Assembly (NCBI GenBank): GCA_045535465.1
Contig: JAZSLS010000100.1
Location: forward strand, 559 to 64,558
Origin: Eubacteriales bacterium
Lineage (GTDB): Bacteria > Bacillota > Clostridia > Oscillospirales > CAG-382
Direction: 5' to 3'
Length of the DNA stretch: 64,000 nucleotides
Under the pieces are notes generated by a model that did no database searches, had not been told where the DNA came from, and was given only the letters and a program-made list of their open reading frames with translations. Made by a program: the position numbers and the translations under genes. The first letter of the stretch is position 1. Every line of letters starts with the position of its first letter. Below, one piece after another: positions 3,588 to 25,139 of the stretch.

Positions 3588-3665
3588 AAAAGCGTAAGAG
3601 GGAATATGTTGCGTCACTGCACTTAAAATGCGGTGGCGCTTTTTCTATGCCAAAACGGAGGTAAA

Positions 3666-4934
3666 ATGAAGGAAATACTAATAAGCGTAAACAAAAAAAT
3701 AGCCACAGCGGCAGAAGGGCAGTTTATAGTAAACGGCAACAGCGACGTTGTGGCAAGGTTTGCTTTTGACAGCGAATGGGAAAACAGCGGAACCAAAACC
3801 GCTGTTTTTCTGCTTTCGGACGGCAGCGCCTACTACGAAATAATTAAGGACGGCGTTTGCCCCGTACCCGTTTTGTATAACACCGCCTACGTTAAAATCG
3901 GCGTAATAAGTGCATCCGTGTATACAAGCACTTCGGCAAAGGTTGTCTGCCGCCCTTGCATAACCGACGAAAACGCAGGTGATGCTCCCGTAACGGAGGA
4001 TAACTACGCCAAGCTTTGCACCTATATCGACGAAAAAGCTGCTTCCGTAGAAATAAGTAAAGCGGGCAATTGGCTTATAAACGGCAAGGATACGGGCGTA
4101 TCCGCCAAGGGAGAGAAAGGCGATCGTGGCATACAGGGTCAAAAGGGGGATAAAGGGGACAAGGGCGACAGCTACGTTTTAACGGCTTCCGATAAAGCCG
4201 AGATAGCAAAACAGGTGGAGCACGCAAATATAGTACAAGCGCCAAGGTTTGTAAACTCTATAAACGAAATGACGGACGTTAGCAAATCCTACGTCCTTGC
4301 CTCCACGGGCAGAATTTGGGCGCATTTGGACACAACTGCTATACAAACTGTAACGGAACAGATAGGCGACACGGCTAACCCATTCATAGATAACGCCCGT
4401 TTGGGCTCCGACGGCTCAACCGCCACCGGTTACGACGGATACGTTGCAACGCCGTACATCGACCTCCTTGCCTATCCCGTGCCGTTTACCTTGCATCTTG
4501 AAGGAGCGACCTTTATACCCACCGCAACCGACAGCTACACAAGAATATGCTCTTACACTGCCGGCAAAACAAAAATATCCCAAGGCAACCACACAAACAC
4601 CACCGTAGACAGTTCTCTTAACGTTGGCGACTCCGACGTTACAGTGAATGGCAATACCGCTACAATACTGTTTGACGAAACCCCGAAAACGAACAACGCA
4701 AACAACGACGGTGTGCTTCAGTTTATAAGGTTTTCGGGCAAGGGAAGTGCAGCTACTGCCAAAGCCTACGTTACTTATGAAGCCGAGGTAACGGGCGGCG
4801 GCTGGGTTGATACGGGCACAAGCTACGCACCTGCTTTGACCGAGAACGAGAAAACCGAAATAGCAGAAATGGCAGCAAACATTATAGATGCCGAGCTTCT
4901 TTCTCTTGTAGGCAACGGAGAGGTAACGGTATGA
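3666..4934 (+). CDS. phage tail-fibre-like protein with collagen-like Gly-X-Y repeat
   Basis: I place the start at ATG 3666 (GGAGG 5 nt upstream) rather than the GTG at 3633. GEKGDRGIQGQKGDKGDKGD lies at 4110-4169, preceded by WLINGKDTGVSAKG, a pattern I recognise from Firmicutes prophage fibre proteins. No signal peptide. Confidence 0.75.
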   Translation: MKEILISVNKKIATAAEGQFIVNGNSDVVARFAFDSEWENSGTKTAVFLLSDGSAYYEIIKDGVCPVPVLYNTAYVKIGVISASVYTSTSAKVVCRPCITDENAGDAPVTEDNYAKLCTYIDEKAASVEISKAGNWLINGKDTGVSAKGEKGDRGIQGQKGDKGDKGDSYVLTASDKAEIAKQVEHANIVQAPRFVNSINEMTDVSKSYVLASTGRIWAHLDTTAIQTVTEQIGDTANPFIDNARLGSDGSTATGYDGYVATPYIDLLAYPVPFTLHLEGATFIPTATDSYTRICSYTAGKTKISQGNHTNTTVDSSLNVGDSDVTVNGNTATILFDETPKTNNANNDGVLQFIRFSGKGSAATAKAYVTYEAEVTGGGWVDTGTSYAPALTENEKTEIAEMAANIIDAELLSLVGNGEVTV

Positions 4935-16515: not shown

Positions 16516-17643
16516 ATGTTAAAAAGAGCATTTAACAGCGACGTAATTGACAGCGCAGTACTCGGCGCAATAGAGGAAAGAGCCTTTCCCGGTGCGCAGA
16601 TAGCTATCGGCGACAAGGACGGCATAATTTACAGCGCAAGCTATGGCTACAAGCGTGTTTTTGATGATGACGCTCCTTGCTTTGACAAAGAGTCTGCCGT
16701 TCTCACGGGTGAAAAGCCTCCCGTTGATATGGATACCCTTTACGATATGGCATCCTGCACCAAAATAATGTCCACCACTATGGTTGCCCTTCGTATGATA
16801 GACGAAGGTAAGATAGCTCTTTACGACAGCATAAGCCGTTTTATAGACGTTCCCGAGGATAAAAAGGGCATAGAGCTTCGCCATCTTCTCACGCATACCA
16901 GCGGTATCAAGGCGCATTTCCTTCTTGAAAACGATGGCAGAGACGCAAGCGAAGCCGCAAAGATAGTCCTTGACCATCCGCTTTCCACGCCTACGGGTAC
17001 TAAGGTAGAGTATACCTGTATGGGCTATATCCTTTTGGGTAAGATACTTGAAAAGCTTGGCGATATGCCCCTTGATGAGCTGGCAACCAAAAAGGTATGG
17101 CAGCCCCTTGGTATGGATAACACCTGTTACCGTCCTCTTGATAAGGGCTATACCAATATTGCCGCTACCGAATACACCGAAGACTTGGGTGCATATAAGG
17201 TAGGCATCGTTCACGACGAAAACGCACGCTTTTTAGGCGGCGTAAGCGCAAACGCAGGCGTGTTCTCTAATGCTAGCGACGTTGCGGCGCTTGCAACAAT
17301 GCTTTCTGCAGGCGGCATCCATAAGGGCAAAATGTTCCTTTCTCCTTCTCTCATTAAGCTTGCACGTACCGATATGACGGCAGGTCTTGGAGAGGGCAGA
17401 GGTCTTGGCTTTGTTGTAAAGCAGGCAGGCACATTAAGCGCTATGGGCGACCTTTATCCGGGCGGCTCCTTCGGTCACAACGGCTATACGGGCACATCTC
17501 TTTATACTCACGGCGATAATGGCTTGTACGTTATCCTTTTGGCAAACAGAGTTCATTTTACCCGTAACAGTGACAGGATTTTCCGTTTCCGCCGTACCTT
17601 CCACAACCTTTGTACCGCAGAATACGAAAGAGCAACCATTTAG
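16516..17643 (+). CDS. serine hydrolase, class C beta-lactamase / DD-peptidase family
   Basis: SxxK motif in MASCTKIM; HLLTHTSG; 375 aa. AGGAGG RBS. Confidence 0.8.
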   Translation: MLKRAFNSDVIDSAVLGAIEERAFPGAQIAIGDKDGIIYSASYGYKRVFDDDAPCFDKESAVLTGEKPPVDMDTLYDMASCTKIMSTTMVALRMIDEGKIALYDSISRFIDVPEDKKGIELRHLLTHTSGIKAHFLLENDGRDASEAAKIVLDHPLSTPTGTKVEYTCMGYILLGKILEKLGDMPLDELATKKVWQPLGMDNTCYRPLDKGYTNIAATEYTEDLGAYKVGIVHDENARFLGGVSANAGVFSNASDVAALATMLSAGGIHKGKMFLSPSLIKLARTDMTAGLGEGRGLGFVVKQAGTLSAMGDLYPGGSFGHNGYTGTSLYTHGDNGLYVILLANRVHFTRNSDRIFRFRRTFHNLCTAEYERATI

Positions 17644-18533
17644 CTTGCGCTTCGGCTTTTGGGTATCCTCAGCCTTATCTCAATAAAATCACCTCCGTCG
17701 CTGTCCTCTCGTTCTACGTTAAAGCCTGCGGCAGAGGCAAGGCCTACTACCTTGTCAACGGAGTTTATAAAAAACTTAATATCACTAACGGTGCCCACAA
17801 GTCTTTGTGTGGCACCCTTCTTTTTGTTTTGCTTAGTCGGTTTTTGTATACCGGTAAGATAGCTTTCCACCAGCATCTCGCTTTCTTCGGCGTTATATCC
17901 GTTTTTAACGGAGGCATCCAGCAGCTTAAGCCTTGTGTCAATATTGGTTATACGCAAAAAGGCACGTGCTTGTCTTTCGGGCATACGGCTTTCTCTTATA
18001 ATGTGTCTTTCGTCTTCCGTGTATTTTAAAAGCCTAAGCTTGTTTGCAACGGTAGGCTGGCTAAGCCCCAGGCTTGCGGCAAGCTCTGCTTGAGTAAGAC
18101 CGCAAACAATCATAATGTTTTGCATAGCGGCGGCTTGCTCAAAAAAATCCAGGTCGTTGCGGAAAGCGTTTTCCGCCAGCGCCATCTGGGCGCTTTCTCC
18201 CGAGGTGGCGGTAATCAGCATACAGGGCACGGTTTCAAGCCCTGCCATCCTCGATGCACGCCAGCGCCGTTCTCCCGCAATTATTTCGTATACGGCTTTT
18301 GCTCTTACCGTTTGCCCGTTAAGGCTTATTTCAGGCGTGTTTTCTCGTCTTCGTACGCAAATAGGCTGAATAATTCCGTTTTGCTTTATACTTTCGGAAA
18401 GCTTTACAAGCTCTTCGTTGTCAAAAATGCGTCTTGGCTGAAGCGGATTTGGTACAAGACAGTCAAGAGGAATATGTATAAGGCACGGAACGTTGGATTT
18501 TTTTGTAAAGCTTAAAATATTTGAAAGCTTCAA
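17640..18533 (-). CDS. ParB/Spo0J/Noc-family DNA-binding protein (orphan, no parA nearby)
   Basis: ParB box GERRWRASRMAG and an HTH region QAELAASLGLSQPTVANKLRLL. I move the start to TTG 18533 (AAGGAGGTG 9 nt upstream). The track's ATG at 18578 lies inside the predicted -10 element. Confidence 0.8.
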   Translation of the reverse strand: MKLSNILSFTKKSNVPCLIHIPLDCLVPNPLQPRRIFDNEELVKLSESIKQNGIIQPICVRRRENTPEISLNGQTVRAKAVYEIIAGERRWRASRMAGLETVPCMLITATSGESAQMALAENAFRNDLDFFEQAAAMQNIMIVCGLTQAELAASLGLSQPTVANKLRLLKYTEDERHIIRESRMPERQARAFLRITNIDTRLKLLDASVKNGYNAEESEMLVESYLTGIQKPTKQNKKKGATQRLVGTVSDIKFFINSVDKVVGLASAAGFNVEREDSDGGDFIEIRLRIPKSRSAS

Positions 18534-18568
18534 TTTATAGCACCTCCTTGGTTTTGTCCCCGGCGGTA

Positions 18569-18577
18569 ATTGTAGCA
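18569..18577 (-). promoter_or_regulatory. extended -10 promoter element (TGcTACAAT) for the ParB-like gene
   Basis: The minus strand reads TGCTACAAT about 36 nt upstream of the TTG start. No good -35 element. Confidence 0.45.
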
Positions 18578-18649
18578 TACGCCCTTTGTCGAAAACGCAA
18601 AAAAACTGTCACCGTCAAGGTAACAGCTACTCTTTTTGTTGGTTTTGTC

Positions 18650-19138
18650 TATATGATAAAAAGCGGCAAAGCGCCGCTTTTCCTACTTAACAAAATAAAA
18701 TGTTGTTTTTTGCGTTGTGAATAGGTGCGTTTTATAAGAGCAAAACAAAAAGCGGAGGGTATGGAGAAGGGAAAATAGGCTCGAATGAACGAACTAAGGC
18801 GCAAACTGTACTAAGTACAGTAAGCCGAAAGTTCGTGCATAGCAAAAAACATATAAATCAGTCAAAAGGAAAAGCGGCAAAGCGCCGCTTTTCCTACTTA
18901 ACAAAATAAAATGTTGTTTTTTGCGTTGTGAATAGGTGCGTTTTATAAGAGCAAAACAAAAAGCGGAGGGTATGGAGAAGGAAAAATAGCATTGAATGTA
19001 CGAACCAAGGCGAAAGCTGTACTAAGTACTGCGAGCCGCAGGTTCGTGCATAGCAAAAAACATATAAATCAGTCAAAAGGAAAAGCGGCAAAGCGCCGCT
19101 TTTCCTACTTAACAAAATAAAATGTTGTTTTTTGCGTT
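18650..19138. repeat. 211-bp tandem direct repeat, 2.3 copies, each carrying a GC hairpin/T-tract and a variable hairpin
   Basis: Equivalent G residues lie at 18663, 18874 and 19085, giving an exact 211-bp period. Copies 1 and 2 are identical over ~140 nt but differ at 13 of 60 positions in 18771-18830 versus 18982-19041. Copy 3 is the first 59 nt only. Confidence 0.95.
19080..19105 (-). terminator. hpt terminator hairpin (also repeated at 18658-18683 and 18869-18894)
   Basis: AAGCGGC-AAAGC-GCCGCTT is flanked by an A run and a T run. On the minus strand it is followed by TTTTCCTTTT. Confidence 0.75.
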
Positions 19139-19149
19139 CGATGTTATTT

Positions 19150-19689
19150 TTACTCTCCATACTCGGCTATGTAGGGGAGGTTGCGGTAATACTCCCCGCA
19201 ATCCAACCCATACCCAATAACAAAATGGTCGGGAATGGTAAACAAAGCCTTATCTGCTTCAAAATCCACAACTCTGCGGCTGGGCTTATCAAGCAGGGTA
19301 ATAACCTTAAGGGACAAAGGACGTCTTGCCTTAAGAAGCTTAACAACCTCGCTTAAAGTTCTGCCTGTGTCAATAATATCCTCCACGATGATAACGTGGT
19401 AATTGCTTATATCCTGAGAAAGGTCCATAGTAATGGCAACGGTCCCCGTGGAAACAGTACCGTCAAAATAGCTTTTTGCACACATAAAGCCTATTTCGCA
19501 AGGAACTGTAATGGCACGGCAAAGGTCAGCCATAAAAACAAAAGCGCCCTTAAGTATGCTAACCAAAAGAATAGGTCTGCCGTCGTAGCTTTCACTTATC
19601 TCCTTGCCTGCTTTGGCAATAGCATCGTCAATCTCTTCCTTGGTTATAAGCACTCTTTTTATTTTTTTATCAAAAGCTTCTTTTGTCAT
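19150..19689 (-). CDS. hpt: hypoxanthine phosphoribosyltransferase
   Basis: PRPP-binding motif VIIVEDIIDTGRTL; 179 aa. Confidence 0.95.
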   Translation of the reverse strand: MTKEAFDKKIKRVLITKEEIDDAIAKAGKEISESYDGRPILLVSILKGAFVFMADLCRAITVPCEIGFMCAKSYFDGTVSTGTVAITMDLSQDISNYHVIIVEDIIDTGRTLSEVVKLLKARRPLSLKVITLLDKPSRRVVDFEADKALFTIPDHFVIGYGLDCGEYYRNLPYIAEYGE

Positions 19690-24744: not shown

Positions 24745-24926
24745 GTCGTGCATATCACGGCGAAGCCGTGTATATCATCAATACGAAGCATTGTATTTCA
24801 CCAACACGAAGTGTTGTATATCATCAAGCCGCAGGAAAATACACGCCGGTGCGTGATGATATACAGCCCCATAGGGGCTGATGATATGCACGACTGTGTC
24901 GTGATGATATGCCAAACTTGCGGCTT
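24745..24926. repeat. array of seven 12-bp motifs TGTATATCATCA (4 direct, 3 inverted) plus nested dyad symmetries
   Basis: Direct copies at 24749, 24769, 24792 and 24815. Inverted copies (TGATGATATRCA) at 24854, 24879 and 24902. Spacing is 20-25 bp. See findings. Confidence 0.85.
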
Positions 24927-24972: not shown

Positions 24973-25057
24973 TGGTGGGAGCGGGTGGATTCGAACCACC
25001 GAAGTCGTTGACAACAGATTTACAGTCTGCCCCCTTTGGCCACTCGGGAACACTCCC
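24973..25057 (-). tRNA. tRNA-Tyr (anticodon GUA), long variable arm
   Basis: The reverse complement is GGGAGTGTTCCCGAGTGGCCAAAGGGGGCAGACTGTAAATCTGTTGTCAACGACTTCGGTGGTTCGAATCCACCCGCTCCCACCA. Anticodon loop CTGTAAA; CCA is encoded. Confidence 0.95.
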
Positions 25058-25064
25058 CCATTAT

Positions 25065-25139
25065 TGGAGCTGGTGAAGGGAGTCGAACCCCCAACCTGCT
25101 GATTACAAATCAGCTGCTCTGCCATTGAGCTACACCAGC
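25065..25139 (-). tRNA. tRNA-Thr (anticodon UGU)
   Basis: The reverse complement is GCTGGTGTAGCTCAATGGCAGAGCAGCTGATTTGTAATCAGCAGGTTGGGGGTTCGACTCCCTTCACCAGCTCCA. Anticodon loop TTTGTAA; CCA is encoded. Confidence 0.92.

Follow-up and report, generated by a model that had tools for sequence, protein, structure and literature searches.

A tandem array upstream of a Noc-like parB gene in a Clostridia genome contains a structurally conserved hairpin and may encode sibling small RNAs

In plasmid copy-control antisense RNAs and in the type I antitoxin small RNAs (Sib, Rdl, and OrzO), a few hairpin nucleotides of repeated units set the specificity for the partner. In the tandem sibling small RNAs (sRNAs), such as OmrA/OmrB of E. 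coli, PrrF1/PrrF2, and AbcR1/AbcR2, two adjacent homologous units each carry an intrinsic terminator, and the tandem-encoded OmrA and OmrB have nearly identical ends and a divergent middle (PMC4211561). In this work, we analyzed a stretch of 64,000 nucleotides of contig JAZSLS010000100.1 from an uncultured, Oscillospiraceae-like gut bacterium of the order Eubacteriales and the class Clostridia (hereafter, the window), in which a tandem array located at positions 18659-19138 contains two copies of a unit that differ within a long hairpin. The element is real, non-random, and structurally conserved. We consider, with a probability of about 0.5, that the array represents tandem sibling genes for a new small RNA whose hairpin would be the recognition module; the transcription of these genes, their promoter, their ligand, and a difference in specificity between the copies are inferred.

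The array lies between a gene of the ParB family (17640-18533, minus strand) and hpt (19150-19689, minus strand), and it is the sole tandem repeat with a period above 25 nt in the whole window. Tandem Repeats Finder (TRF) and a repeat search define a period of 211 nt with 2.27 copies and 95% matches, the copy-to-copy identity of the 211-nt units being 94%; together with a base-by-base comparison, they resolve the layout as [T58][X153][T58][X153'][T58]. T58 is present in three exact copies of 58 nt each (18659-18716, 18870-18927, and 19081-19138). The first of them comprises a bidirectional intrinsic terminator hairpin at 18659-18681 (AAAAGCGGCAAAGCGCCGCTTTT) and a 35-nt tail, while the last one is the native terminator and 3' region of hpt. 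In L001/L035, the closest complete relative, the lone hpt terminator and 3' region are collinear with T58 when inspected by eye, which indicates that the units reuse copies of hpt's own terminator and that T58 is not foreign. X153 is composed of a purine-rich leader (GCGGAGGGUAUGGAGAAGGGAAAAUAGG), a 56-nt hairpin, and an A-rich linker (AGCAAAAAACAUAUAAAUCAGUCAAAAGG) that runs, single-stranded, from the hairpin into the next T58 (18841-18869 in the first copy and 19052-19080 in the second, plus strand).

A comparison of 18659-18869 with 18870-19080 reveals exactly 13 differences, at positions 18771, 18779, 18780, 18782, 18788, 18795, 18802, 18805, 18819, 18821, 18822, 18828, and 18830. All of them fall in the block 18771-18830 (plus strand; partner block 18982-19041), which is flanked by 112 identical nt before and 39 after, that is, 151 of the 211 nt at 100%. 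This reproduces to the base the cluster of 13 differences in 60 positions, with identical flanks, described in the initial annotation of this DNA. Were 13 differences scattered at random over 211 nt, they would all lie within a stretch of 60 nt with a probability of about 2.7e-6, and none of 200,000 simulations gave such a result. Six of the differences are at paired positions of the hairpin, three are in its internal loop or bulge, and four are in the 5' flank.

Both copies fold into the same long hairpin, as had been proposed and as RNAfold confirms (z about -5.5), with an outer stem ACGAACY/RGUUCGU, a GGC/GCC segment, and an inner stem RCUGUAC-UAA-GUACWGY. The minimum free energy (MFE) is -22.0 kcal/mol for copy 1 and -26.9 kcal/mol for copy 2 (z of -5.6 and -5.5, respectively; 0 of 200 shuffles as stable), and the hairpin and the terminator remain the dominant structures in a 160-nt context (z of -6.4). 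The stem is 4 bp longer than first described, since 18785-18788 pairs with 18837-18840. The hairpin of unit 1 (18785-18840, plus strand, 56 nt) is thereby built of the 4-bp extension, ACGAACU/AGUUCGU, GGC/GCC, an internal loop GCAA/AA, and an inner stem ACUGUAC-UAA-GUACAGU. The hairpin of unit 2 (18996-19051, plus strand, 56 nt) has ACGAACC/GGUUCGU, GGC/GCC, an internal loop GAAA/GA, and an inner stem GCUGUAC-UAA-GUACUGC that contains a U-U mismatch. Both of the paired double changes previously noted, from T18795:A18830 to C19006:G19041 and from A18805:T18821 to G19016:C19032, are real, as is the change of T18807:A18819 into T:T in copy 2; in addition, the change of A18788 to T converts an A-G mismatch into a U-G pair.

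To place the array among related genomes, 25 species-level loci encoding ParB relatives were fetched, and 11 further exact-protein look-ups with hpt or ParB relatives yielded 44 contigs; an exact-protein look-up with the window's own hpt protein found no record. Two of the loci carry a full hairpin. In L005, a Clostridia metagenome-assembled genome (MAG) whose ParB is 57% identical to that of the window, blastn aligns the hairpin alone. A covariance model, R1, was built from the two window copies and L005; it gives 96 bits to copy 1 and 100 bits to copy 2, by construction, both being input sequences of the model, and it found the hairpin of L003, another Clostridia MAG (ParB 60% identical), with 40 bits and an E-value of about 1e-7 in 342 kb. 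A third locus, L034 (ParB 91% identical), has the first part of the unit; its contig stops within it, at the point where the hairpin begins, which would fit an assembly break at diverging repeat copies; it was the only one of the 44 look-up contigs that held part of the unit.

In the three sequences of the model, 95% of the pair cells are standard and six pairs have changed on both sides. In a shuffle control, the mean number of double-changed pairs was 2.3 and only 4 of 500 shuffles reached six. When the partner column was slid by 1-3 positions, pairing fell to 17-40%. RNAalifold independently predicts the same structure. When L003 is included by manual structural alignment, the four hairpins together have 84 paired cells out of 87, and 10 pair positions show two or more standard pair types; the seventh outer pair, for example, is U-A, C-G, C-G, and A-U, and the third inner pair is U-A, U-U, U-U, and C-G. 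In place of the 3-bp GGC/GCC helix, L003 has one of 10 bp that ends in CCC/GGG. The hairpins of L005 and L003 have therefore kept the fold through further compensatory changes, beyond what is expected by chance, and the earlier claim that the structure is under selection is supported.

Several features are conserved. The four hairpins share the ACGAAC/GUUCGU base and the GUAC/GUAC top of the stem, a loop of 3-4 nt, and an asymmetric 4x2 internal loop of the form 5'-GNNA-3'/5'-RA-3' (GCAA/AA, GAAA/GA, GAGA/GA, and GUUA/GA). They are also followed by a 3' tail, ARCRAAAAA, and by a terminator within 20-30 nt; in the alignments, the first 10 nt of the window linker, AGCAAAAAAC, match this tail, which reads AACGAAAAAA in L005 and AGCGAAAAAU in L003. 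The fact that the asymmetries are kept (the 4x2 internal loop, the bulge, and the 3- or 4-nt loop) speaks in favor of a folded single strand as the target of selection, and against both a mere template-switch quasipalindrome and a duplex operator of fixed spacing. Purifying selection is likewise indicated by the hairpin being the sole alignable segment between genomes whose ParB proteins are only 57% identical.

We do not retain the description of the hairpin as hypervariable with diversifying unpaired nucleotides. It rested on two copies, nearly half of whose differences are at paired positions, and it is misleading because, between genomes, the hairpin is the only alignable and hence the most conserved part. 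Over 48 hairpin positions, copies 1 and 2 show 8 differences, as many as copy 2 shows with L005. When L005 is taken as the outgroup, it is copy 2 that has the older state at most sites, and copy 1 is more derived; as U-U is the older state at the pair that seemed broken, this pair was repaired in copy 1 and not broken in copy 2. Most simply, two old core alleles would lie inside flanks that were duplicated or homogenized recently, a situation that could have been reached by gene conversion sparing the core or by recombination that brought in a patch from another strain. The variable nucleotides may have a specificity role, and selection may hold the two cores distinct.

Compared with OmrA/OmrB, PrrF1/PrrF2, and AbcR1/AbcR2, the array has the same organization of two adjacent homologous units, each with an intrinsic terminator, but no sequence or structural homology to them in the Rfam scans. 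The divergent middle of the window units is a base-paired hairpin that keeps its fold and is not single-stranded as in OmrA/OmrB. Furthermore, the identical flanks of the window units include, unlike those of the sibling sRNAs, the promoter-side and spacer DNA, and this extent of identity (151 of 211 nt) implies that a recent duplication or gene conversion was involved. Kissing-loop or antisense specificity hairpins are the mechanism closest to the initial annotation's idea of a specificity-determining RNA hairpin; in contrast to the plasmid copy-control and Sib/Rdl/OrzO systems, no toxin open reading frame (ORF) overlaps or adjoins the window units, and no replicon is present. A search of the whole window with Rfam 15 returned only three tRNAs at the gathering score, and, when 18400-19300 was searched at E-values up to 10, the best matches reached 28 bits against thresholds of 80-115 and were all implausible. 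Rfam also gave no match in L005 or in two further loci described below (L026 and L033), and none near the threshold in the L003 region. No blastn match to the unit was found among 72,556 plasmids and 50,697 phages, nor any match in a pattern scan of viral contigs.

The orientation of a putative transcript was considered from the folding energies of the two strands. The sense and antisense MFE values of the four hairpins are -22.0/-21.4, -26.9/-19.4, -26.8/-19.7, and -34.9/-29.1 kcal/mol, so that the window plus strand is the more stable in four out of four. This strand folds better because of the G-U pairs, all three of which are on the sense strand, and this favors an RNA read from the plus strand. 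Twenty-nine nt after each window hairpin there is a terminator stem, AAAAGCGGC...GCCGCUUUU, with equivalents after the hairpin in L005 and L003; it was not listed by the consensus terminator scan because only 4 U directly follow the stem. In L003, the stem is followed by a U-run in the sense direction only. The element also has the opposite orientation with respect to parB there, as would be expected of an independent transcription unit and not of a parB leader. By sequence inspection, a possible sigma-70-type promoter, TTGCGT-17-TATAAG, precedes the hairpin on the plus strand at 18710-18738 in unit 1 and at 18921-18949 in unit 2; the consensus scan missed it because the last base of its -10 element is G.

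As for a coding region, the candidates were a 5-codon ORF after GGAGGG and 9-codon ORFs on the plus strand, and 37-aa ORFs on the minus strand (18732-18845 and 18943-19056). The latter start with TTG and have no Shine-Dalgarno sequence, and their frame is broken by indels in L005. None of the candidates combines a proper ribosome-binding site with conservation.

We therefore favor a plus-strand RNA of about 150 nt per unit. The element most likely represents a new small-RNA family that occurs in a few gut Clostridia and has undergone duplication in this genome. According to this proposal, the array would be a tandem duplication of the gene for an undescribed small structured RNA, transcribed from the window plus strand with a purine-rich 5' leader, the 56-nt imperfect hairpin, a single-stranded A-rich tail (ARCRAAAAA...), and an intrinsic terminator. 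The terminator of each unit would be a copy of the bidirectional hpt terminator, on which the sRNA and hpt would converge. The hairpin would be the functional core, and its ACGAAC/GUUCGU base, GUAC/GUAC top, and 5'-GNNA/5'-RA loop look like a recognition surface for a protein or an RNA. The two copies would hold different old alleles of this core within flanks recently duplicated or homogenized.

A number of observations weigh against this proposal. Just four full hairpins from three or four genomes are available, a depth at which covariation statistics are weak, and the six invariant stem pairs are uninformative on structure, so that a DNA-level motif is equally possible for them. The element is missing from most orthologous loci, which makes it dispensable. 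The best plus-strand promoter is imperfect, escaped the scan, and has no conserved counterpart in L034, L005, or L003. Since the terminators of the window and of L005 are bidirectional, the strand call rests on L003 and on a folding asymmetry due to a few G-U pairs. Finally, no target, seed, or protein partner emerged, and the duplexes predicted against the parB 5' regions were inconsistent across the window, L005, and L003.

If the units are transcribed, they would add a new small-RNA family to the very few regulatory RNAs known from the uncultured Clostridia of the ruminant gut. Its clear architecture (stem base, GNNA/RA loop, GUAC-capped stem, and A-rich tail) makes it easy to search for and to test, and the array would be a compact natural case of duplicated RNA genes that are distinct at their functional core and identical in their flanks. 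Current understanding is not overturned by these observations, and we regard them as a solid lead and not as a surprise.

The distribution of the unit among relatives bears on the alternatives. The hairpin unit is absent from about 45 other orthologous parB loci, including L001, L002, L004, L006, and L077 and the sets P0002, P0004, P0007, P0008, P0121, P0027, and P0036. In L001 and the first five of these sets, ParB is 67-81% identical and the hpt-parB synteny is kept. The intergenic region of the loci without the unit measures 125-177 nt and has a single terminator in every one whose sequence was read. In all carriers, the element is in the intergenic region directly upstream of a Noc-like parB paralog, an association that may be partly due to ascertainment bias, as the loci were fetched through the ParB protein. 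The gene on the other side differs, being hpt in the window and a histidine kinase in L003 and L005, and the orientation of the element relative to parB is inverted in L003.

Two further observations concern the contigs themselves. Those of close relatives of the carriers break in the unit (L034, positions 1-20, and L076, positions 1-12, the latter starting in the terminator after an L003-type hairpin), which suggests that these genomes, too, have repeated or polymorphic forms of the element and that short-read assemblies systematically lose it. In L005, a comparison of 3610-3886 with L006 and L004 (around 3850-3900) delimits a 248-nt insert that contains the hairpin, located between 26-nt direct repeats of the histidine-kinase terminator (AAACGAAGTCGTTTTACGACTTCGTT). 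At both junctions, the sequence is identical to that of the empty site of L006, which has a single terminator. No sequence is common to the insert ends of the different genomes, and the window units are flanked by 58-nt repeats instead of 26-nt ones.

The alternative that survives best, although we find it unlikely, is that the element is a palindrome at the DNA level, that is, a low-copy mobile sequence similar to repetitive extragenic palindromes (REP) or miniature inverted-repeat transposable elements (MITE), or an excisable cassette beside terminators, gained and lost horizontally, whose fold matters as single-stranded DNA or not at all. The patchy presence (window, L034, L005, and L003, with absence from relatives of 81-88% ParB identity among the approximately 45 loci) and the flipped orientation in L003 would be accounted for, as would the disagreement between the hairpin and ParB trees, in which the L005 hairpin is nearer to the window (83%) than to L003, while the L005 ParB is nearer to L003 (75% vs 57%). 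The L005 insert, with its precise 26-nt terminator repeat and the empty site in L006, points in the same direction, as do the T58 copies on both sides of each window unit. Like REP and bacterial interspersed mosaic elements (BIME) or enterobacterial repetitive intergenic consensus (ERIC) sequences, the element is an imperfect intergenic palindrome of about 50-60 nt near terminators, in either orientation and patchy among relatives.

However, it is not dispersed as these are: there is one locus in 64 kb and one per related locus, and no further copy was found in the window or in about 340 kb of related loci beyond the syntenic ones, so it is not a high-copy sequence. All three independent occurrences are in the same intergenic region, and a strand-specific tail and terminator travel together with the hairpin. 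No termini are conserved between the window and L005, where only the hairpin and the short tail align, and no transposase, REP-associated tyrosine transposase (RAYT), or integrase was seen adjoining the element. The T58 copies may also have another explanation. At 18629-18658 there is an inverted remnant of the unit's 5' leader, detected by the repeat search and by comparison with L034 by eye, whose reverse complement resembles CAAAACCAAAAAACGGAGGG of L034. This remnant suggests a trace of an older, rearranged third unit; with a rearranged first unit, the T-X-T-X-T layout can be explained by ordinary tandem duplication.

A bolder combination of mobility with the RNA-gene proposal, to which we give little credence, would be an excisable RNA-gene cassette that moves horizontally among gut Oscillospiraceae-like Clostridia and inserts at intrinsic terminators, preferentially upstream of Noc-like parB, with duplication of the host terminator (26 nt in L005 and 58 nt in the window); the hairpin alleles would then be RNA-RNA or RNA-protein specificity determinants and the tandem pair would be selected. 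Were it true, it would be a new kind of miniature mobile element with a structured RNA as its only cargo. Short of that, the terminator duplications around the unit in two genomes hint at an unexplained route of insertion or loss for such genes.

It is quite unlikely that the RNA is read from the minus strand, which is that of hpt and parB, as a product of the hpt 3' untranslated region (3'-UTR) or of hpt read-through, with the hairpin followed by a C/U-rich stretch containing the anti-Shine-Dalgarno CCCUCC and by a terminator. With T58 read as its reverse complement, each unit would then have a stem and a U-run on the minus strand, CCUUCUCCAUACCCUCC lies downstream of the hairpin on this strand in the window and in L034, and a TTGACT-18-TATGCA match is found just upstream of the hairpin; the start directed by this match, however, would fall inside the 5' arm of the hairpin. 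In L034, moreover, the unit is directly before a good minus-strand terminator, hairpinP, a separate intrinsic terminator that the terminator scan located in the window at 18604-18628 (minus strand), just upstream of the parB promoter region, and which is adjoined directly by the unit's leader in L034. Against these points, all four homologs fold less stably on the minus strand, with a deficit of up to 7.5 kcal/mol, because the G-U pairs become A-C mismatches. L003 has no U-run after the stem in the equivalent of the minus direction, and conservation of the C/U-rich motif does not extend to L005 or L003.

The absence of any selected function appears improbable to us. Under this explanation, a recent intergenic duplication would have been followed by clustered inverted-repeat mutation through quasipalindrome template switching or by the acquisition of a 60-nt recombination patch from another strain. 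Inverted-repeat template switching is a documented source of clustered, complementary changes, and can create or maintain RNA hairpins (PMC7202029; 10.1101/2021.04.15.439925); because it copies a change from arm to arm, it produces "compensatory" pairs in a single event. The contrast between flanks that are 100% identical and a core that is 22% different has a patch-like look, and the L034 leader mixes the copy-2 state at 18771 with the copy-1 state at 18779-18782. Nevertheless, template switching drives a quasipalindrome to perfection, whereas the 4-nt versus 2-nt loop and the 3' bulge persist in four copies from three genomes and the U-U mismatch in three, and the purifying selection on the hairpin noted above is hard to reconcile with a lack of function. 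Template switching may be the origin of the paired changes, not the reason for the retention of the element.

Hardly credible is a DNA site for the adjacent Noc-like ParB, be it similar to parS or to a Noc-binding site (NBS) or the cruciform suggested in the initial annotation: ParB proteins do bind palindromes, and the hairpin is directly upstream of the parB paralog in all carriers and in either orientation, which a DNA site tolerates, but the idea fails mainly because most orthologs, about 45 loci, have no such sequence nearby (no covariance-model matches), and also because the ACGAAC and GTTCGT half-sites are 36-50 bp apart at a spacing that varies with the loop (3 or 4 nt) and the lower stem (3 or 10 bp), as a hairpin but not a dimeric operator tolerates, and a strand-specific conserved tail and terminator accompany the hairpin.

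Other identities were considered and rejected. An integron attC site is not compatible with the arms (A)ACGAAC and GTTCGTG, which violate RYYYAAC...GTTRRRY, or with repeat boundaries that are at the terminator copies and not in the hairpin, attC cassettes being bounded at G|TT. A type I toxin-antitoxin system would have a conserved small hydrophobic ORF with a ribosome-binding site, and none is present. A kink-turn has a 3-nt bulge and, after it, tandem sheared G-A and A-G pairs; the 5'-GNNA-3'/5'-RA-3' internal loop is not of this type, as its bulged strand lacks the NNN-GA arrangement. The CGAAC/GTTCG half-sites are separated by 36-50 nt and not by the 4 nt of a LexA (Cheo) box. A diversity-generating retroelement was discarded because the substitutions are of all types and not adenine-specific, and no reverse transcriptase is nearby. 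In contrast to REP/BIME and ERIC sequences, finally, the element has a strand-specific tail and terminator, and no RAYT or transposase is in view.

A second family of repeated hairpins appeared among the sequences compared. In L026 (3054-3296 and 5384-5690) and L033 (13040-13285), from metagenome Ga0310690 and an unrelated organism, a unit of about 220 nt is present at least three times, with two of the copies forming a tandem of period 219. Each copy has a hairpin of about 110 nt and a terminator, with compensatory changes in the outermost stem and no Rfam match. The core of their apex is as in the window hairpin, GGCG-NNN-GCUGUAC-loop-GUACUGC-AA-GCC, including the U-U mismatch and the 4x2 internal loop. 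We do not claim homology, as R1 gives them only 15-16 bits, no better than random pattern matches in coding DNA.

Regarding the neighboring genes, the one at 17640-18533 (minus strand) encodes a Noc-like protein of the ParB/Spo0J family with 297 aa; its TTG start at 18533 was placed by comparison with P0001. The product scores 122.8 bits with NCBIfam TIGR00180 (cut-off of 58.45) and 229.7 bits with TIGR04285 (noc), which is under the cut-off of 315. The gene at 19150-19689 (minus strand), which converges on the last T58 terminator, is assigned to hpt (hypoxanthine phosphoribosyltransferase) by NCBIfam TIGR01203, with 196.7 bits and a cut-off of 150. About 55 nt upstream of the parB-like start, at 18587-18593, there is a TGTCGAA sequence (TTCGACA on the parB strand). 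The GTCGAAAA motif occupies the corresponding position upstream of the parB paralog in all the relatives whose intergenic region was read (L001-L006, L034, L035, L042, L049, L054, L056, and L076) and is identical to the Spo0A "0A box", TGTCGAA, apart from one mismatch in each of L042, L049, L054, and L056, which suggests that the Noc-like parB paralog may be under Spo0A or sporulation control. Among the 25 loci, only L023 (CAVIFG010000081.1) is not labelled as a Firmicutes MAG; it is named "Escherichia coli isolate ... cleanbin", its ParB relative is 41% identical to the query, and it is probably a mis-binned contig. Elsewhere in the window, a 23-nt tandem repeat (24761-24827, 2.9 copies, 79% matches) and an inverted repeat next to it (24815-24865) are found a short way upstream of two tRNA genes (24976-25139).

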